A DNA stretch of 64,000 nucleotides from a virus. The position numbers and the translations under genes are program-made. Below are positions 10,387-61,190 of the stretch, one piece after another. Each line of letters begins with the position of its first letter. The stretch's first letter is position 1. The stretch spans positions 4,583 through 68,582 of IMG/VR virus record IMGVR_UViG_3300025875_000013. One strand, given 5' to 3'. Under the pieces are notes generated by a model. That model saw nothing but the letters and a program-made list of their open reading frames with translations, searched no databases and was not told the origin of the DNA.

Positions 10387-10539
10387 CAATATGGCATCAG
10401 GAAGCAAGATAACGAATATCAGAAAGTATTATTCCGGCGATACAGCCGCATCAACCAGGGCAAGCTTAAGGACTAAATATTCGGCTGCTGCAAGTGCAGG
10501 TGATCCGTTTTAAAATGAAAAATTGAGAAAGGGTTAAGA

Positions 10540-10896
10540 GTGTACGAATTTACAGATGAGCAAATGGAGAGTGCAATTGTCGGCAGTGCTGGCATTGTGT
10601 CTACTATTGCCAAAAGGTTAGCAAAATTCGCCAATGTTAAGCGTATTAGTTGGTCAACTGCGGAAAAGTACGCTAATTCAAAACCTGAATATATCCAGCT
10701 TTTAAAAGATGAAACTGAAACAGTTCTGGATATGGCCGATGGTAAGCTATATGAACAAATAAAAAATGGTGAAGCCTGGGCAATTAAATGGCTACAAGCT
10801 ACAAAAGGGAAAAAACGCGGGTATGTAGAAAGAACCGAATCAGCCGTAACGCATAAATTCGGAATAGATGCCGATGATGAAGAATATGTTGATTGA
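10540..10896 (+). CDS. terminase small subunit (putative)
   Basis: 118-aa ORF immediately upstream of and overlapping the large-terminase gene, with an HTH-like N-terminal half. Assignment is by position and size. Confidence 0.4.
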   Translation: MYEFTDEQMESAIVGSAGIVSTIAKRLAKFANVKRISWSTAEKYANSKPEYIQLLKDETETVLDMADGKLYEQIKNGEAWAIKWLQATKGKKRGYVERTESAVTHKFGIDADDEEYVD

Positions 10897-12346
10897 TGAA
10901 CCTGTACAAGCCCCGCGTTTACAGCTAAAAAAAAAGTGGTTCAATCCGCTTTACTTTATCCTGAATGAGATAATTAAAGATGATACAATCCGGAATGTGT
11001 TGATATATGGCAGCAAGTCCGCCGCTAAAACAATTACCGTATCTCAAATCCTGGCAAAAGAAGCGTTTGTTAAGAAATCCAACACAATAGCTTTTCGGAA
11101 AGAATCTACGCTGATTCAGACTACGCTAAAAAAGTCTTTTAACCTTGCCATTGAAACGTTACGGCTTAAAAACGGGTTTGATAGGTTTTTATTCCAATAC
11201 CGGTGCATCAATGGCAGCGAAATAGTGTTAAAAGGTCTGGATGATCCGGAAAAGGCCAAAGGTATTGAATCTTTTAAGTACGTGTACCTGGATGAGTTAA
11301 ATCACTTTGAACAGGAAGAGTACGAACAGTTTAATTTATCGCTCAGGGGTATACCGGGGCAAAAGATATTCGGTTCCTGGAACCCGGTAAGTGAAACGTC
11401 CTGGATTAAAACAGAATTACTAGATAACTATACCTTTACCGCTACTGATCGGTTCGGGAAATTAGTAGACCCTAATTCATTCGTTAAAATATCAGAGGAT
11501 GGTAAAATAATTCTGATTAAAACAACTTACAAAGATAATTTCTGGATAACCGGTAGTCCGGACGGTAATTACGGTTATAGAGATGAAAATTTAATCCAGG
11601 CTTACGAAACACTTAAAGACCGCAACCCGAACTCTTACCGGGTAAACGTATTGGGAGAATGGGGTAAGGCACTAACCGGAGGCGAATACGCGCATAAGTT
11701 CGATAAGCTTACTCACGTAAAGAAAGTACCCTTCCTGGAAGATGCAAGGTTACCTATTCATTTAAGCCTGGACTTTAATGTCAACCCGTACATGACGGGT
11801 CTGTGCGCCCAGTTGATACTAAACGCACCGGATGGACGGCAAAAGCTACGCATATTCAAAGAATACTGTCTACCCTCACCGCGTAACACCACGGCTGATA
11901 TTTGTTCGGCATTGGTTACGGATTACGGGCATAAGATGAGGGGGTTATTCTACTACGGAGACCCGAACGGACGCACCCGCCAAACCGTTACCAAAGAGTA
12001 CGCAAATAACTTTGACGCGCTGGCAAAGCACCTTAGAAAATACCTGAACACTAATTCTGATCGGGTTATTACCCGTTACCCTGATTTATTGAACAGCCGG
12101 GACTTCCTAAATAATATTCTTTCCGGTTACTATGGCATCGACCTGGAAATAGATGAAAATTGCGTTAATTTAATAGCGGATTTAGAGTTCGGTAAAGAAG
12201 GCCCGAACGGGGGTATGTTAAAAGAGAAGGCAGTTAATAAGACAACAGGTATCAGTTACGAAAAGTACGGGCATACTACCGACGCTCTTAGATATATGAT
12301 TGTTGCTATATTTGAAAAGCTATACGATAGTATTAACAAGATTTAA
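10868..12346 (+). CDS. terL: terminase large subunit (ATPase + nuclease)
   Basis: 492-aa ORF. P-loop 'LIYGSKSAAKT', Walker B 'YVYLDELNHF', and a C-terminal acidic-residue-rich nuclease half ('HLSLDFNVNPY...'). Positioned before the portal gene. Confidence 0.75.
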   Translation: MPMMKNMLIDEPVQAPRLQLKKKWFNPLYFILNEIIKDDTIRNVLIYGSKSAAKTITVSQILAKEAFVKKSNTIAFRKESTLIQTTLKKSFNLAIETLRLKNGFDRFLFQYRCINGSEIVLKGLDDPEKAKGIESFKYVYLDELNHFEQEEYEQFNLSLRGIPGQKIFGSWNPVSETSWIKTELLDNYTFTATDRFGKLVDPNSFVKISEDGKIILIKTTYKDNFWITGSPDGNYGYRDENLIQAYETLKDRNPNSYRVNVLGEWGKALTGGEYAHKFDKLTHVKKVPFLEDARLPIHLSLDFNVNPYMTGLCAQLILNAPDGRQKLRIFKEYCLPSPRNTTADICSALVTDYGHKMRGLFYYGDPNGRTRQTVTKEYANNFDALAKHLRKYLNTNSDRVITRYPDLLNSRDFLNNILSGYYGIDLEIDENCVNLIADLEFGKEGPNGGMLKEKAVNKTTGISYEKYGHTTDALRYMIVAIFEKLYDSINKI

Positions 12347-34689: not shown

Positions 34690-34735
34690 AATGCTTATCT
34701 GTTTGTGTTTCTAACTATACAAATGTAGCAATTAT

Positions 34736-34754
34736 ATTTGATATAGCAATAATA
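34736..34754. promoter_or_regulatory. operator-like near-palindrome ATTTGATATAGCAATAATA
   Basis: 18 of 19 positions identical to the copy at 38632-38650. The core ATTTGATATAGCAAAT is an imperfect palindrome. Intergenic, next to an XRE-like HTH gene. Confidence 0.35.
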
Positions 34755-34773
34755 TTTGCTAATTATTTTTCAT

Positions 34774-34956
34774 TTATTTTTCATTAGTATTCAACCCGTC
34801 TAAATAAGCATGTATTTTATCTATTGTTTCCTGTGAGCCGTAATTTTTTGTACCTGAAAGGATGTGAGAGAGCGTAAACGGGGAAATCCCGATGGCCTCT
34901 GCAATTTTATATTTTTTAAGGCCTGTTTTTTCTATTTTTTCTACTAAATCTTGCAT
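34774..34956 (-). CDS. small HTH (XRE/Cro-like) regulator
   Basis: 'KKYKIAEAIGISPFTLSHILSG' is a HTH. Confidence 0.55.
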   Translation of the reverse strand: MQDLVEKIEKTGLKKYKIAEAIGISPFTLSHILSGTKNYGSQETIDKIHAYLDGLNTNEK

Positions 34957-34988: not shown

Positions 34989-35636
34989 CTATTCAGGCGA
35001 TAAGCAAAAAGACTGGTTTTCAGATAGCCAGTAAGGAGGTCTCCAAGCCATCATTCTAACCGAAATACTCTCTTTAAGGCCGCTTTCCTTTGCCGGTATT
35101 GGCCTTATAACCTTATCAAAAGGATTGTAATTAACGGATTCGATATGAAAACCCGAAATTTCACCTTTGCCTTGGCTGGTTTTTTTGCCAATACCCCGTA
35201 AATGCCGTAATAAATATTCAACCCGCACAATATCATTACTGGCAAAATAAAACCATACTGTTTTGATACTGTGCAGAACTAAGGGCATATCATAACTTTT
35301 GTATTCACCTGCATTAATCCGCACCTTTCGTACTTTCTTGCCAAAGTCAGCCAGGAAATCATACTGGTTTGCCCATCGTTTCTTCCAACTGCCTGTAAAC
35401 TCCGCTGCCTTGTTGTAATCAAATTGCATCCAACTAGCCAGAAAGTAGCCGTCTGAGTGCCGGATAAGGGGTAGGTCATCAAAAGATTCCAGTTCTTCTT
35501 TCGGGATGCTTAACCGCTGCTGTACACTACCATCTTTTTCTTTCATGTAGCAGTAGGCTAATAAGGCATCAAAAACAGGCAAATCTATAAAGCTGATGGC
35601 TGATGCAAGGTTGAAGCTGATTTTATAGTATTGCAT
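34989..35636 (-). CDS. Cas5-like RAMP protein (candidate Csf3-like)
   Basis: Glycine-rich loop 'GIGKKTSQGKGEISG' (GhGxxxxxGxG) near the C-terminus and ~215 aa are typical of Cas5/Cas6-family RAMPs. It sits next to a Cas7-like gene and a CysH-like gene. Confidence 0.35.
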   Translation of the reverse strand: MQYYKISFNLASAISFIDLPVFDALLAYCYMKEKDGSVQQRLSIPKEELESFDDLPLIRHSDGYFLASWMQFDYNKAAEFTGSWKKRWANQYDFLADFGKKVRKVRINAGEYKSYDMPLVLHSIKTVWFYFASNDIVRVEYLLRHLRGIGKKTSQGKGEISGFHIESVNYNPFDKVIRPIPAKESGLKESISVRMMAWRPPYWLSENQSFCLSPE

Positions 35637-35896
35637 AGTCTTGATTTTTTAATTTTAATGGCGTTTTCTGTTTTGCCCAGCATTGCTGCTACTTCTTTTG
35701 GATGAAATTGCTGTATATATTCCTGTTCTTCACGTGTATAATTTCGCTTACGGCTTAAGCCTAGTTTTACCGCCATCCGACTAATGCTTTTGTCTGATTT
35801 ATCCCGCATATATCCAACCTTTTGCATTTGCTTGTAAGGCATCTTCCCGTAATTTATGCGTAGGAACACCTTGTCTGATAACTTCCACTTAGACAT
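35585..35896 (-). CDS. small HTH-repeat DNA-binding protein
   Basis: Two HTH-like repeats ('...SISRMAVKLGLS...' and '...PKEVAAMLGKTENAIKIKKSRL'), similar to the N-terminal repeats of the 5661 HNH ORF. Overlaps both neighbours. Confidence 0.35.
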   Translation of the reverse strand: MSKWKLSDKVFLRINYGKMPYKQMQKVGYMRDKSDKSISRMAVKLGLSRKRNYTREEQEYIQQFHPKEVAAMLGKTENAIKIKKSRLCNTIKSASTLHQPSAL

Positions 35897-36578
35897 AAGT
35901 TTTAATAATAGGGTATTTAGAGGCGAAACTATTAAACGATTCCGGAAAGCACTTTTTTAAAGTATGGGCTTGCCCGTATTGTAGGGCCCTGTGATTGGCA
36001 AAAGGCCCTATACGTTGCTTTTCTACTGGAATGAAATTGTTATGCATAACGTCATAGGCCTGGTTGTAAGGAACCTCATGGGCATGAATATATGTCCAAA
36101 TATCATCAACGCTCCACCATGCTAAAGGAGAACAATTTCTTTTACCGTTCTTCATTTGATGGATTAAACCAAACCGGTTTAGATGTTTCCTGCGATAACT
36201 ATTTTCATCTGCCCTTAATCCTAAAAAGCAAAGATCAAATTCAAAGTTACTTAAATCGTTTCTGCCTTCATTCGTAATGAACCAATCGGTATGGTGCGCT
36301 TCGGTATGTAGCATTTTGAGATTCGGAACTGTGTCTAAATATTTTTGGGTTTGCGGTAATATAAATTCATCATCGTGATATATAGCCCTGCATTCCGGCA
36401 TATAACTACGTACCAAATGCAGTAAAACAGTAGAATCCTTACCGCCAGAAAGCGAAACATAAGGTTTATTGCAGGAGGCTAAAGCGGTTTTTACGCACGC
36501 TTTAGCCTGTTCAAGATTGGCTTTGAACCCCTTCTGCTCCGATAGTAATAGATAATATTCCTTATCCATTAGCACCAA
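35889..36578 (-). CDS. PAPS-reductase family (CysH-like) PP-loop protein
   Basis: PP-loop 'VSLSGGKDST' and 'LGLRADENSYRR' (GxRxxES..R). Confidence 0.65.
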   Translation of the reverse strand: MVLMDKEYYLLLSEQKGFKANLEQAKACVKTALASCNKPYVSLSGGKDSTVLLHLVRSYMPECRAIYHDDEFILPQTQKYLDTVPNLKMLHTEAHHTDWFITNEGRNDLSNFEFDLCFLGLRADENSYRRKHLNRFGLIHQMKNGKRNCSPLAWWSVDDIWTYIHAHEVPYNQAYDVMHNNFIPVEKQRIGPFANHRALQYGQAHTLKKCFPESFNSFASKYPIIKTYV

Positions 36579-37851
36579 AAAACTGTTTTATAGCTTCTTT
36601 ATTCTCTTCAATATGCTGCAAGTACAGACTATCATCCATATCCGGCAAGGCTGTTAAATTAACGTGCCCGTGCCCGATGCTGCTCTTAGCACACACGTAG
36701 GCATTTTGCTTGAATAGATTAACTAACCGGGCAAAAGCAGCTTCCATTAGAGGGTTGTCAGACCAGCAGGCCAGCGTATGCCGGAAAGGAGTACCGGTTG
36801 CGTAAACCTCATATTCATACTTCATCTGGTGGGTTTCAGGCTTGGCTTCTGGTAATACTTCAATGGTGCTTTCCAGTTTTTCGGAATCCAAACGGGTGCC
36901 AAACTGAATATGTACAAAGTCGTGAAAACTAGCCCGACCTAATCCGTTCTCAAAGCAAAGGGGTTTCGCATCGCCTACGGTAAGTTCGCCTTGTATAGTC
37001 TGGTTGCCTACGGCCGAACCAAAAAGGCCGATCATAGGACACATCTGAATATAATTTTGCCTTGCCTGTAAATCTTCGAAACCGTTGCTGTCGTTAATGG
37101 TGCCGCCCGTAAACAAACGGTGGTACAGCCCTGCTTCTATTTTTTCTATGCGGGCCAGTATGGCAAAGTCATACATAACCAAGCGTCGCAGTAATCCCCG
37201 GATGCTGTTACCAGAAATAACCGGCACCATTTCGTACATTTTGTGCGTGTCCGTGTCCTGAAAAGGTTGCAGCTGAACCTCTCCTAATTGGTCTTGCAGG
37301 ACATCTAATGGGTTCAAGTCACCCGTACCTTCGTTGAAGAGAGTAAGGCTGGTTACTTTTTTCTTTTTACCATTTTCCTTATCCCAATTCACGGTATCAT
37401 CTTTCAGTTTCCGGAAAACAGCCATAATGTATTGGTGTTCATCCCGGATAACCTGCAATAACTCTTCATCATCAAACAACTCCAGAATATCTATCACATC
37501 AAACCGCCCGTCTTCTTTTTGGGTAATCTGCCGGATTTCCAGTTTCTGGCAGATGGTATTAAGAAAATCTTCTTTGCTCCGTACAGAAGTAGAGGATATT
37601 AATTTGGCCGCTACTTCGTCGTATATCGTTACCCGGCCTTTATCCTCCATTTTGTTCCAGAGCTTTATAAGCAGGTAGGCTACGGCCATTCGTTTTAATT
37701 TGCGTTGGTCCGGCGTGAAGCGGCTGCGAATAACTTTTGCTTTTTCCTGTATTACCCTTTCCCTTCTTAAGGTGCGCAGGGTGCCCATATTCAAATCGGA
37801 GCCGGTATGTATGGGTTCCAGGGCGGTAAACTGATAGTTAATTTTTTGCAT
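36562..37851 (-). CDS. Cas7-like RAMP protein (candidate Csf2-like backbone subunit)
   Basis: N-terminal 'ALEPIHTGSD' (Cas7 PLHIGSG-type motif). Central 'VPVISGNSIRGLLRRL' (RAMP IPGSSxKGxxR motif). C-terminal small G-rich 'SSIGHGHV'. Confidence 0.5.
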   Translation of the reverse strand: MQKINYQFTALEPIHTGSDLNMGTLRTLRRERVIQEKAKVIRSRFTPDQRKLKRMAVAYLLIKLWNKMEDKGRVTIYDEVAAKLISSTSVRSKEDFLNTICQKLEIRQITQKEDGRFDVIDILELFDDEELLQVIRDEHQYIMAVFRKLKDDTVNWDKENGKKKKVTSLTLFNEGTGDLNPLDVLQDQLGEVQLQPFQDTDTHKMYEMVPVISGNSIRGLLRRLVMYDFAILARIEKIEAGLYHRLFTGGTINDSNGFEDLQARQNYIQMCPMIGLFGSAVGNQTIQGELTVGDAKPLCFENGLGRASFHDFVHIQFGTRLDSEKLESTIEVLPEAKPETHQMKYEYEVYATGTPFRHTLACWSDNPLMEAAFARLVNLFKQNAYVCAKSSIGHGHVNLTALPDMDDSLYLQHIEENKEAIKQFFGANG

Positions 37852-38551
37852 AAGATTTCTGTAAAAAATGGACGATTAAATTAAATATATTGGTGTTCCG
37901 GAATTGATTCAGAGCTTCATTTTCCTGTTCAAACCTTTCTAATCCATAAGCTGCTATCTTTTGGTACATCGGTAATTTTTCACCCCTGATTTCTTCTTTG
38001 GTGAAATAAGTAGGGGGCATGGCAGCATCTTCTTTGCCGGTTACAACCGTGTACCAGGAAGAAATAATAGGCAGGAATTGATTTACCTGTTCCCGGTCAA
38101 AATAACAGTTGTATTTATCGGTAGTAATTAAGAAATAACCCTTATCGGTGTTGGTAACGGTTTTATAACTGGTATGCTTTTTATTGGAAAAAGTAAGGGC
38201 AATATGAAAAGGGGTTTCGGGTATATTCAGGAGCAAATCTAAAACCTCATTGGATTTAAGGATGCGAAAAACACTTTCGGAAGCGTAGTAATTATAGTTG
38301 CGGAGTGAATTGAAACCTTTACCACTTTCACTAGGATAAACTTCTTCAATACACAATGCTGCCTCCACCGAACTATAAGGAGAAGGGTATTTTACATACT
38401 CATGATCGGTGAATGTGTCTTTTATCAGGTCTTTATTCCTTACACCTTCGCTTATTTTTTTGCCGGTGAAAGAACAAATGCTGCCTTCCGGCATTTCAAA
38501 TACCGGTATTTTTAGATTTCCCCGGATAAGATGCTTGGCTATTATTTCCAT
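37838..38551 (-). CDS. hypothetical protein, first gene of the RAMP/CysH cluster (possible large-subunit analog, speculative)
   Basis: 237-aa ORF overlapping the Cas7-like gene start. No motif recognised. Confidence 0.25.
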   Translation of the reverse strand: MEIIAKHLIRGNLKIPVFEMPEGSICSFTGKKISEGVRNKDLIKDTFTDHEYVKYPSPYSSVEAALCIEEVYPSESGKGFNSLRNYNYYASESVFRILKSNEVLDLLLNIPETPFHIALTFSNKKHTSYKTVTNTDKGYFLITTDKYNCYFDREQVNQFLPIISSWYTVVTGKEDAAMPPTYFTKEEIRGEKLPMYQKIAAYGLERFEQENEALNQFRNTNIFNLIVHFLQKSYAKN

Positions 38552-38631: not shown

Positions 38632-38650
38632 ATTTGATATAGCAAATATA
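38632..38650. promoter_or_regulatory. operator-like near-palindrome ATTTGATATAGCAAATATA
   Basis: Second copy of the 19-nt site, in the divergent intergenic region between the RAMP cluster (minus) and the plus-strand genes. Confidence 0.35.
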
Positions 38651-38682
38651 ATTGTTATTTTTGTTAAATCAAACTAAACATT

Positions 38683-40540: not shown

Positions 40541-40729
40541 ATGAGCGATTTAGAATGCGCTGCTATGGCAATTGCATGGCAAATGATGCAATATGAAAAG
40601 ACAGGAGCACCCAAAGGAACCCGCAAGTGGTTTCCTAGACACATTTACAGTAAAAGTGAAGGATGGGAATTAGTAAATTGTGAAAACGGGTGTGTAATTG
40701 CCAATATGCGACCGAAAAGAAGAAAATAA
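40541..40729 (+). CDS. hypothetical Cys-containing small protein
   Basis: 62-aa ORF with 'CAAMAIAW...CENGC'. Confidence 0.2.
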   Translation: MSDLECAAMAIAWQMMQYEKTGAPKGTRKWFPRHIYSKSEGWELVNCENGCVIANMRPKRRK

Positions 40730-41448
40730 TGGATATAAATAAACCGCTAGGAAGAAGGGCGTACGGTTCTATTCCGCATCTTCCTGGTTCCAGGCTTGGA
40801 CCCGGTGATTATTGCATTAATAAAGGACAGGCCCGGATAGCCACAGAAAAACCAAGAGATAAGCACGATTTAATAATTGTGCAGGAAAAGCTAGACGGCT
40901 CAAATGTTGCTGTAGTAAAAGTAGAAGGCGAAATATATGCCCTAACCCGTGCCGGATATTCAGCGGAAACATCTCCTTACGTGCAGCATCATTTTTTCGC
41001 TAAGTGGGTAGAGCAAAACGAAGGGCGCTTTGCTCGCCTGCTTTATGAAGGAGAAAGATTATCCGGAGAATGGTTGGCAATGGCCCACGGTACTCAGTAT
41101 AATTTACCGCATGAACCGTTCGTGGCCTTTGATTTATTTACTAGCAGCAACGAACGGGTTCCGTATAAAAAATTTGAAGCGGCTGTAAAAGATTATGATT
41201 TTATTATTCCAAAACTGCTTCACATAGGCAATAATTCTTTTTCAGTAGAGCAAATGAAGGAGGCAATTACTACAAGCGGTCACGGGGCCATAGATGAGGT
41301 TGAAGGCGCTGTCTGGAGAGTTGAACGAAAAGAAAAAGTTGATTTCTTATGCAAGTACGTTCATCACAATAAACAGGATGGTAAGTATTTTGCCGAACAT
41401 ACAGGCAAGGGCAATTTATGGAATTGCGACATTTCACAATGGGAATAA
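40690..41448 (+). CDS. ATP-dependent polynucleotide ligase, Rnl2-like nucleotidyltransferase domain (probable RNA ligase)
   Basis: Motif I 'VQEKLDGSNV' (KxDGxN), motif III 'LSGEWLAMAHG', motif IV 'EGAVWRV', motif V 'FLCKYVHHNK'. At 252 aa it has an adenylyltransferase domain only. Confidence 0.55.
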   Translation: MCNCQYATEKKKIMDINKPLGRRAYGSIPHLPGSRLGPGDYCINKGQARIATEKPRDKHDLIIVQEKLDGSNVAVVKVEGEIYALTRAGYSAETSPYVQHHFFAKWVEQNEGRFARLLYEGERLSGEWLAMAHGTQYNLPHEPFVAFDLFTSSNERVPYKKFEAAVKDYDFIIPKLLHIGNNSFSVEQMKEAITTSGHGAIDEVEGAVWRVERKEKVDFLCKYVHHNKQDGKYFAEHTGKGNLWNCDISQWE

Positions 41449-60103: not shown

Positions 60104-60364
60104 TTATTGCATGTGCCCGAAAAACGCTTCTGGAATTTCCTGTAGATCGCTATCAGGATTTTCAACAAAGCAAACCGTATCATCATGGGTAAACTCTAAT
60201 ACAGTTAATATTTGGTTTTGGAAAAGACATTTATCCCCTTCGTTAATTTTGCCCTCAACTAAAATATAATCTTCCAAGTTTAGGCTACTTTTTTTCTTAA
60301 ATAAACTTTCTAAAACTGTAAAGTTAAAAAGGTTCGCAGCTATCTGCACAATCTTCTTGTTCAT
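60104..60364 (-). CDS. C-terminal part of an ORF interrupted by the 900-bp cassette
   Basis: The N-terminus 'MNKKIVQIAANLFNFTVLESLFKKK' is encoded by the 39-bp direct repeat. The same 'NFTVLESLFKK' peptide ends the ORF at 61187-61390, in the same frame. Confidence 0.3.
   Translation of the reverse strand: MNKKIVQIAANLFNFTVLESLFKKKSSLNLEDYILVEGKINEGDKCLFQNQILTVLEFTHDDTVCFVENPDSDLQEIPEAFFGHMQ
60292..60330. repeat. 39-bp perfect direct repeat, copy 1 (TTTTCTTAAATAAACTTTCTAAAACTGTAAAGTTAAAAA)
   Basis: Identical to 61192-61230, exactly 900 bp away. Confidence 0.8.
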
Positions 60365-61190
60365 CTAACTCAAAGTCATATTCAGAACCATCAGTAATCA
60401 TCGATTTATCGACAGCCAAATTAAAGGGTTCTTTACTTTCTTGTAGTAAGTCTCTAATGCTTTGCCAACCACGAAAAAACATTAATGGCAACTTACCTTT
60501 ATATTGTTTTGGAGACACATGTCCGTATTTTTCTTCCATGTTTTGTACCCACTTTGTAGAATTGGGGTCACTGACGATTTGGGTAAGTAGTTTTCTCTTA
60601 CTTTTTTTATGACACAGTTTGCAATTACCCTCCCAATCTTGCAATTGAAGGTCAAAATTTTGAGCCTTCCAGGAAACAGCCACATCAGCTTTGGTAATAC
60701 CCCATTCCCAGAGCGGATACCATTGTTTTTTCATCGCAGCAGTAATTAAATTAACCCTCTTAGGTTCGTCTTTTCTATACCCTATAACCATTAAGCAATC
60801 TTTAAAGCCTACACTTTTGGCAAATGACTTAATTGGGTTAGTTTTTAATTCCCTGGTACAATGTGGTGTAGATTTAGAAGGTATTCCGTATTTTTTTATA
60901 ACCTCTTCAAATATTTCGCCATTCCGCGCGGCTGTGTTGTAATTGACAATAGAATGCGTGCTTGATTTTCTTACTCCATGCCATACTTTCGCTTCCACCC
61001 AAACAATCGACATACCAAAATTTTGTTCTAACTGGTGTAAAAAAAGAAGTGTTTCTTCCTTTTCCCTGCTGGTATTGGCAAACACGAAGATCATTTCATA
61101 TTTATCTTTGTACCTAGTCCATAATAAATAAGCCATAAGCCCAGACGTTCGACCCCCGGAAACAGATACCAATAATTTTTGTCTATTCAT
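60324..61190 (-). CDS. PAPS-reductase family PP-loop protein (second copy in window), cassette-borne
   Basis: PP-loop 'LLVSVSGGRTSG', 'IGYRKDEPKR', C-terminal 'CKLCH'. The gene fills the interval between the two 39-bp direct repeats, and its stop codon lies inside copy 1. Confidence 0.6.
   Translation of the reverse strand: MNRQKLLVSVSGGRTSGLMAYLLWTRYKDKYEMIFVFANTSREKEETLLFLHQLEQNFGMSIVWVEAKVWHGVRKSSTHSIVNYNTAARNGEIFEEVIKKYGIPSKSTPHCTRELKTNPIKSFAKSVGFKDCLMVIGYRKDEPKRVNLITAAMKKQWYPLWEWGITKADVAVSWKAQNFDLQLQDWEGNCKLCHKKSKRKLLTQIVSDPNSTKWVQNMEEKYGHVSPKQYKGKLPLMFFRGWQSIRDLLQESKEPFNLAVDKSMITDGSEYDFELDEQEDCADSCEPF

Follow-up and report, generated by a model that had tools for sequence, protein, structure and literature searches.

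The locus at positions 34989-38551 raises the question of whether a phage can carry an effector of type IV-B, the least understood CRISPR-Cas subtype and one without an array and without a nuclease, and if so, how that effector is composed. The window (the whole 64-kb stretch of DNA analysed) belongs to a tailed-phage genome, with genes for a primase-helicase, large terminase, portal and tape-measure protein, and we infer a plausible Bacteroidota host. The original prediction was correct in its phage setting but not in deriving novelty from this location, as prophages and one archaeal virus with IV-B systems are already on record (PMC7038947, PMC10848311). A check of the ORFs in the window returned the five predicted minus-strand ORFs, and every motif quoted for them was found in the translations:

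37838-38551, minus strand: csf1, type IV Cas8-like large subunit, 237 aa (PADLOC and TIGR03114)
36562-37851, minus strand: csf2/cas7, backbone subunit, 429 aa, with an internal Cas11 domain (PADLOC)
37261-37722, minus strand: Cas11 small-subunit domain within Cas7 (residues ~44-197), consisting of a helical bundle and, after it, a low-confidence linker of ~30 residues
35889-36578, minus strand: cysH-like (CasCysH-type) gene of the PP-loop ATP alpha-hydrolase family, 229 aa, TTG start (Pfam and PHROG)
35585-35896, minus strand: small putative HTH protein between cysH and csf3, 103 aa (weak PHROG and Sigma70_r4_2 matches)
34989-35636, minus strand: csf3, type IV Cas5, 215 aa (PADLOC and TIGR03116)

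In the resulting order, csf1-cas7/11-cysH-HTH-csf3, neighbouring genes overlap by 14, 17, 8 and 52 nt from the csf1 end to csf3, which fits a single translationally coupled operon. The same cassette genes were predicted by independent gene callers on three public contigs.

Profile searches placed the 429-aa and 215-aa proteins, for which Cas7 hallmarks and a Cas5/Cas6-type glycine-rich loop had been noted, in type IV Csf2 and Csf3 rather than in non-RAMP families. The 429-aa protein carries the motifs TALEPIHTGSD and VPVISGNSIRGLLRRL and matched the PADLOC Csf2 profile (E=3.8e-40), whilst the 215-aa protein, in which motif GIGKKTSQGKGEISG is present, matched Csf3_0_IV over residues 1-214 (E=5.5e-37), in addition to a precomputed PF27782 Csf3 assignment and a match to the Csf3 chain 8rc3_F in the PDB (E=0.0011). 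The 237-aa protein, initially left as an unknown, was identified as Csf1 (PADLOC PDLC01721 Csf1_0_IV, E=3e-21, residues 19-232), accompanied by a weak precomputed match to PF27781 Csf1. Such resemblance to Cas families greatly exceeds what chance would produce. Scores against the curated models were far under their cut-offs, at 29 bits (E=7.7e-7) of a required 140 for Csf1 against TIGR03114, 26.3 of 130 bits for Csf2 against the NCBIfam equivalog and 63.8 of 140 bits (E=1.7e-17) for Csf3 against TIGR03116, which indicates a divergent lineage; routine annotation leaves the IV-B lineage of the window largely unnamed. A profile of the Cas7 family matched IV-B Csf2 (1.7e-12) and ‘Cas7c’ 11fs (2.3e-14), and IV-A3 Csf2 far less well (2.6e-5). 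Together with the CysH-like gene described below, these assignments bear out the type IV-B-like reading first proposed for the locus. No Cas10 or HD domain, on which placement in type IV-C would depend, was matched by PADLOC in the window, the large subunit being the 237-aa Csf1.

A Cas11 small subunit, overlooked by the original prediction, is also encoded by the locus, as an internal domain of Cas7. In the AF2 model the 429 residues resolve into a single Cas7 core and a single Cas11 domain, and both AF2 models obtained were confident. When 67 cassettes were compared (66 IMG/VR loci and that of the window), the fused form constituted one clade of 21 cassettes; it did not occur in any of 72,556 plasmids. 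Clustered at 50% identity, the fused Cas7 family still comprises at least 52 groups, across which protein length, the site of insertion and a set of invariant residues are conserved. No published description of an internal Cas7-Cas11 fusion was found for type IV systems. An identity with type III-E was considered and rejected, as the protein of the window contains one Cas7 and one Cas11 domain in 429 aa and is of type IV by both sequence and structure.

The large subunit has also diverged. The CxxC...CxxC columns of Csf1 are kept in 42-44 of 44 cassettes with a free Cas11 and in 10 of 20 fused-type cassettes; in the window this zinc tetrad is degenerate, C26 being retained and the other three positions occupied by T29, S61 and A64. 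Loss of three of the four zinc-ligand cysteines could affect the large subunit.

The 229-aa protein, originally read as a PAPS-reductase-like PP-loop protein, carries the SGGKDS PP-loop and the motif LGLRADENSYRR and matched Pfam PAPS_reduct (E=2.2e-18) and PHROG 2302 (E=2.5e-28). This reading was substantiated by end-to-end alignment with the CysH-like genes of canonical IV-B loci, namely Orf44 of Skermania phage SPI1 (5e-18) and an IV-B-linked gene of a Natrinema plasmid (6e-13) in full-length BLASTP. The ECGLH catalytic-cysteine motif is missing from the window protein and from all 58 cassette-linked homologues, of which 48 retain SGGxDS and 56 retain SxGxDS. As the PP-loop is kept and the sulfonucleotide-reducing cysteine is missing, ATP-dependent modification is most likely, rather than PAPS reduction. 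Partial matches to BrxP (7.2e-15, covering 60 of 779 profile positions) and DndC (5e-7) were returned by PADLOC; Dnd/Ssp phosphorothioation and BREX type 4 were rejected, as no DndA/B/D/E, SspA-C or Brx partners occur among the 99 other ORFs of the window. Nor did BLASTP match the cassette CysH to the other PP-loop gene of the window.

The link between the CysH-like enzyme and the IV-B cassette is near-obligate, and elsewhere the enzyme is swapped for other enzyme-sized proteins: a methyltransferase-like gene or an uncharacterised ~230-aa family. The motifs of the latter, DSGAFG and LGAGW, are reminiscent of tRNA-guanine transglycosylase/DpdA, but Pfam and PDB profile searches yielded nothing significant and the family was left unassigned.

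The absence of an array, Cas6, Cas1/2 and nuclease noted at the outset held under closer inspection. Tandem Repeats Finder, a direct-repeat search and a spaced-repeat scan detected no CRISPR array in the 64-kb window, and PADLOC detected no cas1, cas2, cas4, cas6, cas3, cas10, dinG or recD among its other 99 ORFs. Types IV-A, IV-D and IV-E were accordingly rejected, there being no DinG/RecD, Cas6/Csf5 or array in the window. An Rfam scan of the window identified two tRNAs only and no RNA family near the cassette, and no conserved non-coding element that might serve as a guide or scaffold RNA was common to the flanks of the cassette in the window and in other loci.

A complete Cascade-like set of Csf1, Cas7, Cas11 domain and Cas5 might nonetheless load crRNAs from arrays of the host or of related phages, and thereby silence competing elements or host defence genes, stopping their transcription or replication with no cleavage involved, in the manner of type IV-A, for which nuclease-free interference is documented (PMC12669027). 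This proposal draws on a Fuxivirus IV-B locus with a mini-array (PMC10848311) and on L010, a fused-type relative on a phage-like contig (capsid, protease, portal) with an 11-repeat array (32-nt repeats, 33-34-nt spacers) ~950 nt from its cassette. However, L010 is the only one of 76 related loci with a nearby array, its spacers have no significant match to any fetched locus, and its repeat recurs on eight other viral contigs, the fetched portions of which carry no IV-B genes. Since the repeat is not linked to IV-B in these portions and the spacers are unmatched, arrays were not counted as part of the system. The guide-making Cas6 is also lacking in the window, and crRNAs co-expressed with the model IV-B complex were not enriched in it (PMC7937560). 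We hence regard such borrowing of guides as unlikely, though the real array beside a fused-type cassette leaves some doubt as to whether the clade works independently of crRNAs.

Relatives of the cassette were retrieved from 66 IMG/VR viral contigs. A DNA-level search of GenBank phages gave no match, whilst the protein-level search gave a sole match, Skermania phage SPI1, in which an unannotated canonical IV-B cassette was recognised (Orf40-44). The phages concerned are unrelated and have nothing but the cassette in common; it turns up in them as an intact unit, and is a mobile module. This recurrence has a bearing on whether the locus is a decaying, non-functional CRISPR-Cas remnant carried as passenger DNA, as might be suspected from the missing array, nuclease and adaptation genes, the lost Csf1 cysteines and the low scores against curated equivalog models. 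Every gene is intact, however, and tightly overlapped with its neighbours, and decay is difficult to reconcile with the confident AF2 models, with the breadth and conservation of the fused Cas7 family or with repeated occurrence as a unit in unrelated phages; we consider it extremely improbable.

Several small elements surround or interrupt the effector genes. The 103-aa protein, with weak matches only (PHROG 323 ‘transcriptional regulator’, E=7.7e-7; Sigma70_r4_2, E=0.006), has homologues at the equivalent position in two other cassettes (L006 and L008) with overlaps of 31 nt, compared with 52 nt with csf3 in the window, and its sequence suggests a putative HTH function. A 289-aa gene after cysH in L001 was considered as a fused HTH-Csf3 and rejected; csf3 of that locus lies 4.4 kb downstream. 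Further features were located at the ends of the module:

34774-34956, minus strand: XRE-type HTH protein, 60 aa, 32 nt downstream of csf3 (Pfam HTH_3, E=1.3e-4)
34726-34761, no strand assigned: two overlapping copies of an operator-like motif just downstream of the XRE gene (matches at 34729-34749, minus, and 34738-34758, plus)
38634-38657, no strand assigned: AT-rich, operator-like motif TTGATATAGCAAATATAATTG / TAGCAA-N6-TTGTTA, lying upstream of csf1 within a divergent promoter region of 131 nt

All three occurrences of the 21-nt motif in 64 kb, where 0.02 would be expected, fall at one or other end of the module; a perfect palindrome, TAGCAA-N6-TTGCTA, is present at 34744-34761. The XRE gene, which has no homologue in the other cassette loci, falls within the span bracketed by these motifs, and its product is a possible regulator; a regulatory role for the motif itself is likewise suggested by the sequence. 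A sigma-70-like minus-strand match was located at 38672-38645, though neither the promoter scan nor the terminator scan around the operon rose above background.

We consider it probable that the locus encodes an array-less phage IV-B effector with Cas11 inside Cas7 and a CysH-like partner. If the assembly resembles the solved Mycobacterium IV-B complex, copies of Cas7 would polymerise along RNA at ~6 nt per subunit, whilst the Cas11 domains, on flexible linkers of ~30 residues, would form the minor ‘belly’ filament at Cas7-Cas7 interfaces in a fixed 1:1 stoichiometry, and Csf3 and Csf1 would cap the filament. The CysH-like enzyme would most likely use ATP in modifying, by adenylylation or in some other way, a substrate that the RNP holds or finds. 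As there is no nuclease in the complex, it would affect a target, if at all, by binding or modifying it and not by cutting. The phage would probably employ the complex in conflict with its host or with competing mobile elements; the mobility of the cassette between unrelated phages and its swappable accessory gene likewise suggest that it serves in conflicts of phage with host or of phage with phage, through an RNP-delivered enzyme.

A phage-borne complex could alternatively act as a decoy, sequestering host crRNAs or other small defence RNAs and so disarming immunity. The idea has been raised previously (PMC7038947), and suits both the phage location and the sequence-nonspecific RNA binding of the model IV-B complex (PMC7937560). 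Its proposing authors nevertheless judged it unlikely, given the cost and complexity relative to known anti-CRISPRs (PMC7038947), and it leaves unexplained both the near-obligate CysH-like link and the fact that other enzyme-sized proteins take the place of this enzyme elsewhere. We therefore hold a decoy function to be decidedly improbable.

A more specific reading of the enzyme-carrying IV-B effector is offered tentatively: an undescribed, monophyletic, virus-borne IV-B lineage whose Cas11 has been placed within the loop of Cas7 where type III Csm3 carries its catalytic residue. Backbone and belly would then stand at 1:1, in what would be the type IV equivalent of the Cas7-11 fusion idea, and the ‘cysH slot’ would be interchangeable within this lineage, being occupied by a CysH-like gene, the ~230-aa family or a methyltransferase-like gene. 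If true, the Csf filament would be a general phage platform that brings different nucleic-acid-modifying enzymes to RNA-bound or RNA-specified substrates.

In comparison with known systems, phage location by itself is not new for IV-B; the new features are the fusion of Cas7 with Cas11, the lost zinc cysteines of Csf1 and the order of the genes. The IV-B system of the Mycobacterium sp. JS623 megaplasmid (PDB 7JHY; PMC7937560) resides on an actinobacterial plasmid and has a separate 143-aa Cas11, with six Csf2 to five Cas11 in the complex, whereas that of the window resides on a tailed phage, probably of Bacteroidota, and has Cas11 as an internal domain of Cas7; identities between the two are ~20% for Cas7 and 8% for Cas11. 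The canonical order is csf1-cas11-csf2-csf3(-cysH), in contrast to csf1-cas7/11-cysH-HTH-csf3 in the window. Nearer in setting are the viral free-cas11 cassettes (46 IMG/VR loci, L021-L066; SPI1 Orf40-44; and the archaeal ‘Fuxiviridae’, PMC10848311), which are likewise virus-borne csf1/cas11/cas7/csf3/cysH loci and array-less except for the Fuxivirus mini-array. These have a cas11 of 112-152 aa between csf1 and a ~280-aa cas7, whereas cas11 and cas7 are fused in the window, and the IMG/VR set forms the sister group of the window clade in a neighbour-joining tree of the Cas7 core, which covers viral loci only. The DinG helicase, Cas6/Csf5 and CRISPR array of type IV-A (PDB 7XG0, 8RC3) do not occur in the window, and type IV-A in turn is without the Cas11 and CysH that the cassette possesses.

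The type III-E Cas7-11 (gRAMP) and the type III-D Cas7-Cas5-Cas11 fusion (PDB 7WAH, 7Y80, 8S9T) have several Cas7 domains per large effector, need no polymerisation and cleave RNA, whereas the Cas7-11 of the window would still oligomerise. The fusion event is independent of those in types III-E and III-D, and the phage lineage thus represents a second, independent path to joining Cas7 with Cas11. As the covalent linkage fixes stoichiometry and reduces the number of components, reconstitution and imaging could be easier for this form of the complex.

The five minus-strand reading frames originally predicted at 34989-38551 were recovered with the same coordinates and lengths, and every motif quoted for them was found in the translations. 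Profile searches identified the 237-aa, 429-aa and 215-aa proteins as Csf1, Csf2 (Cas7) and Csf3 (Cas5), respectively.

Genes of the window cassette
37838-38551, minus strand: csf1, 237 aa (PADLOC-DB Csf1, E=3e-21)
36562-37851, minus strand: type IV Cas7/Csf2, 429 aa (PADLOC-DB, E=3.8e-40, residues 200-424)
35889-36578, minus strand: cysH-like gene, 229 aa (PAPS-reductase domain, Pfam 2.2e-18)
35585-35896, minus strand: HTH gene, 103 aa (HTH-type matches, all weak)
34989-35636, minus strand: csf3/cas5, 215 aa (PADLOC-DB Csf3/Cas5, E=5.5e-37, full length)

Each gene overlaps the next, by 14, 17, 8 and 52 nt in turn, as expected of a translationally coupled operon. The same cassette genes, including the 103-aa reading frame overlapping csf3, were called on three public contigs with an identical Cas7, among them a 69,377-bp ENA contig that evidently contains the window. 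NCBIfam concurs for Csf1, Csf2 and Csf3 (TIGR03114, TIGR03115 and TIGR03116) with scores far under the curated cut-offs, so that they go largely unnamed in standard annotation. With its genes for a primase-helicase, large terminase, portal and tape-measure protein, the window is a tailed-phage genome. No CRISPR array was detected in it by Tandem Repeats Finder, a direct-repeat search or our own spaced-repeat scan, and a PADLOC scan of its 99 other ORFs returned no Cas1, Cas2, Cas4, Cas6, Cas3, Cas10, DinG or RecD. These scans bear out the predicted lack of an array, Cas6 and Cas1/2 and, with the PADLOC-DB, NCBIfam and Pfam assignments, support the reading of the operon as a type IV-B-like effector that lacks an array and has a CysH-like gene.

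The defining genes of type IV-B are csf1, csf2, csf3 and cas11 (PMC8175902, PMC7937560), of which the window cassette lacks a separate cas11. The backbone subunit Cas7 contains the small subunit Cas11 as an internal domain, a conclusion on which sequence, profile-profile and structure comparisons agree. A type IV Cas11 match lies within the 429-aa Cas7 (residues 65-164; PADLOC, E=1e-7) and was retained by the excised insert (E=1.9e-8), whilst the insert profile matched a free-Cas11 profile over 105 columns with 98.9% probability (E=3.4e-17). In the multiple alignment this is a clean insertion at residues ~44-197, between the conserved flanks TALEPIHTGSD...LRRE and VPVISGNSIRG. The AlphaFold2 model of the whole protein was confident (pLDDT 88.4, pTM 0.82) and comprised a RAMP core, in line with the fold anticipated for this protein, a helical bundle at residues 47-164 and a low-confidence stretch at 161-180. 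The Cas11 domain itself had been overlooked in the original prediction.

A search of IMG/VR with the family alignment retrieved 66 viral loci, which were sorted by architecture using cassette HMMs from an iterated search. The fused architecture was found in 20 of these and in the window, with Cas7 proteins of 394-434 aa and, in most cases, csf1 abutting or slightly overlapping cas7. The other 46 loci were of the free architecture, with Cas7 proteins about 270-325 aa long, the majority near 280, and, in most, a 112-152-aa gene before cas7 with type IV Cas11 scores of 1e-19 to 1e-37. Of 44 free-Cas11 cassettes, 42-44 retain the CxxC...CxxC cysteine tetrad of Csf1, versus 10 of 20 fused-type cassettes (alignment of 66 sequences), and the window Csf1 (37838-38551) keeps one of the four cysteines. 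All 21 insert-bearing Cas7 proteins formed one clade in a neighbour-joining tree of the Cas7 core columns, inferred without bootstrap, which suggests that a single insertion event lies behind the fused Cas7.

For the 429-aa protein, a word-indexed search retrieved 139 homologues, nearly all full-length and almost all unnamed metagenome proteins. An exhaustive search of 1.84 billion representatives with the insert profile gave 355 matches at E<=1e-3, the best 150 of which included about 52 proteins of 355-506 aa matched at residues ~44-175 and about 85 free Cas11 proteins of 85-167 aa. A family this large and conserved contradicts the alternative that the cassette is a decayed remnant. The fused form was not found among PLSDB plasmids, where 53 records matched the core and none covered at least 80% of the query; among 185,579 species genomes it was found only in seven MAG contigs, including Paludibacter, Bacteroidales, Kapaibacterium and two Desulfobacterota MAGs. 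Given these taxa, and a large terminase nearest to those of Flavobacterium phages (33% identity), a Bacteroidota host is plausible for the window phage.

Only csf1, cas7, cysH, the HTH gene and csf3 are common to the window and other loci, the flanking genes being unrelated; the cassette is therefore mobile among different phages, in keeping with the earlier suggestion of a phage moron. Gene order varies within the fused clade (cas7-cysH-csf3, cas7-csf3-cysH, or csf1 placed last), and the 103-aa HTH gene occupies the same junction in L006 and L008. In two viral loci, L001 and L002, cysH is separated from csf3 by 4.4 kb of other genes, including a second PAPS-reductase/DUF3440 gene and a GNAT gene. 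A 61-nt direct repeat (90% identity between copies) brackets the L006 cassette, ~50-110 nt upstream of csf1 on one side and ~60-120 nt downstream of csf3 on the other, and may be a relic of the cassette's insertion.

The CysH-like protein carries the SGGKDS PP-loop. Amongst 58 cassette-linked CysH homologues shorter than 300 aa, SGGxDS was present in 48 and SxGxDS in 56, whilst ECGLH, the catalytic-cysteine motif of true PAPS reductases, was present in none, in agreement with the published description of ‘CasCysH’ (PMC8175902). The window protein aligned end to end with the gene that comes after csf3 in Skermania phage SPI1 (E=5e-18), whose cassette is canonical, and with a CysH-like gene close to the IV-B cassette on a Natrinema plasmid (E=6e-13). 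It had no BLASTP similarity to the second PP-loop gene of the window, and no CasCysH structure was found in the PDB. Other genes were observed in the cysH position of related cassettes or next to these cassettes.

PP-loop, cysH-slot and related genes
60324-61190, minus strand: second window PP-loop gene, 288 aa, SspD-like (PADLOC, E=3.9e-15)
L005 9299-9958; L013 9256-9963; L045 781-1506: cysH-slot protein family
L015 9238-9738: 166-aa protein between cas7 and csf3
L001 10915-12048; L002, L014, L016, L020-L022, L042, L051, L053, L055: extra 377-437-aa gene
Natrinema plasmid L077 8608-9957: corresponding gene, annotated DUF3440

In three IV-B cassettes cysH is absent and its position is occupied by a conserved 219-241-aa protein, the two genes being mutually exclusive in 3/3 loci. 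This unnamed family has at least 297 homologues, with invariant residues including D-S-G-A, A-P-D, H..LGAGW and D, and gave no Pfam domain or significant PDB sequence match. The contigs of several homologues match in length contigs that bear fused Cas7 proteins. The 166-aa protein of L015, a cysH-less fused-type locus, is weakly methyltransferase-like (PF03602, E=0.005; ELMAGSG motif). A long PAPS-reductase-family gene lies beside the cassette in 11 of the 66 viral loci, which therefore carry two genes of this family; a DUF3440 domain was confirmed for it in L001.

In the IV-B complex of Mycobacterium sp. JS623, six Csf2 subunits wrap an RNA that is kinked every 6 nt, Cas11 sits on the Csf2-Csf2 interfaces and never contacts the RNA, and the bound RNAs are heterogeneous and not crRNAs (PMC7937560). 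One alternative is that the cassette complex borrows guides, in favour of which a single fused-type relative, the phage-like L010 (= L081; capsid, ClpP-like protease and portal), lies next to a CRISPR array. This array (10416-11107), ~950 nt downstream of cysH, has 11 identical 32-nt repeats (GTTTCAATCCACGCCCCCGCGCGGGGGGCGAC) and 33-34-nt spacers. Its repeat also occurs on eight further IMG/VR contigs, whose fetched parts contain no IV-B genes, and its spacers matched none of the loci of this analysis. Another alternative is that the complex serves as a crRNA sponge.

With the parts list and fused Cas7-11 architecture of the cassette established, Cas7-11 would polymerise as does Csf2 of the Mycobacterium complex, a flexible ~30-residue segment after the bundle letting each Cas11 domain reach an interface. 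Cas11 would be inserted in the loop that joins the N-terminal strands to the G-rich helix, probably where Csm3 and JS623 Csf2 carry their (putative) catalytic loop, which faces the target strand; the Cas11 domain would thus emerge on the correct filament face. Since the CysH-like enzyme keeps nucleotide binding, and not sulfonucleotide reduction, the most economical reading would be ATP-dependent adenylylation or modification tied to the RNP, as proposed in PMC8175902. Without a nuclease or helicase, the outcome would be binding or modification rather than cleavage.

A 21-nt AT-rich motif (TTGATATAGCAAWTATAATTG), containing a TAGCAA-N6-TTGCTA palindrome, had three matches versus 0.02 expected in 64 kb. 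Across the whole window it is confined to both ends of the csf1-to-XRE module, and from their positions we infer a candidate operator pair bracketing it. Elsewhere in the window, three genes may form an RNA repair or tRNA-related phage module.

Operator-like sites and RNA-related genes
38634-38657: operator-like motif, csf1-upstream promoter region
34726-34761: operator-like motif, two overlapping copies just downstream of the 60-aa XRE gene following csf3
22994-24490, minus strand: 498-aa protein, PHROG 850 ‘RNA-binding protein’ (E=4.8e-45), adjoining the tRNA-Glu gene
24828-24903, minus strand: tRNA-Glu gene
40690-41448, plus strand: RNA-ligase-like gene, 2 kb from the cassette

Type IV-B systems, their link to cysH and their lack of arrays are established (PMC7038947, PMC8175902), and published reports place them on plasmids, in some prophages and in an archaeal virus family (PMC7038947, PMC10848311). 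Orf40-44 of the cultured actinophage SPI1 (KR011061.1 32609-36242; L087 2714-6347), all five annotated as hypothetical proteins, are a canonical csf1-cas11-csf2-csf3-cysH cassette. Given these reports, SPI1 and the 46 canonical viral loci, IV-B on a phage is not new, and the novelty originally predicted for a phage version with this gene order stands for the order and not for the location. Full-text searches of open-access papers, with targeted term look-ups in those retrieved, returned no description of the csf1-cas7/11-cysH-HTH-csf3 order, of a type IV Cas7 with an internal Cas11 domain, or of Csf1 losing its zinc cysteines, as it has in the window and in half of the fused clade. To a type IV specialist the fusion would be notable, as would how large the phage-borne clade is, and the fused form may offer a simpler way into the question of IV-B function. 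Canonical viral IV-B cassettes encode a free cas11, whereas that of the window carries Cas11 within Cas7.
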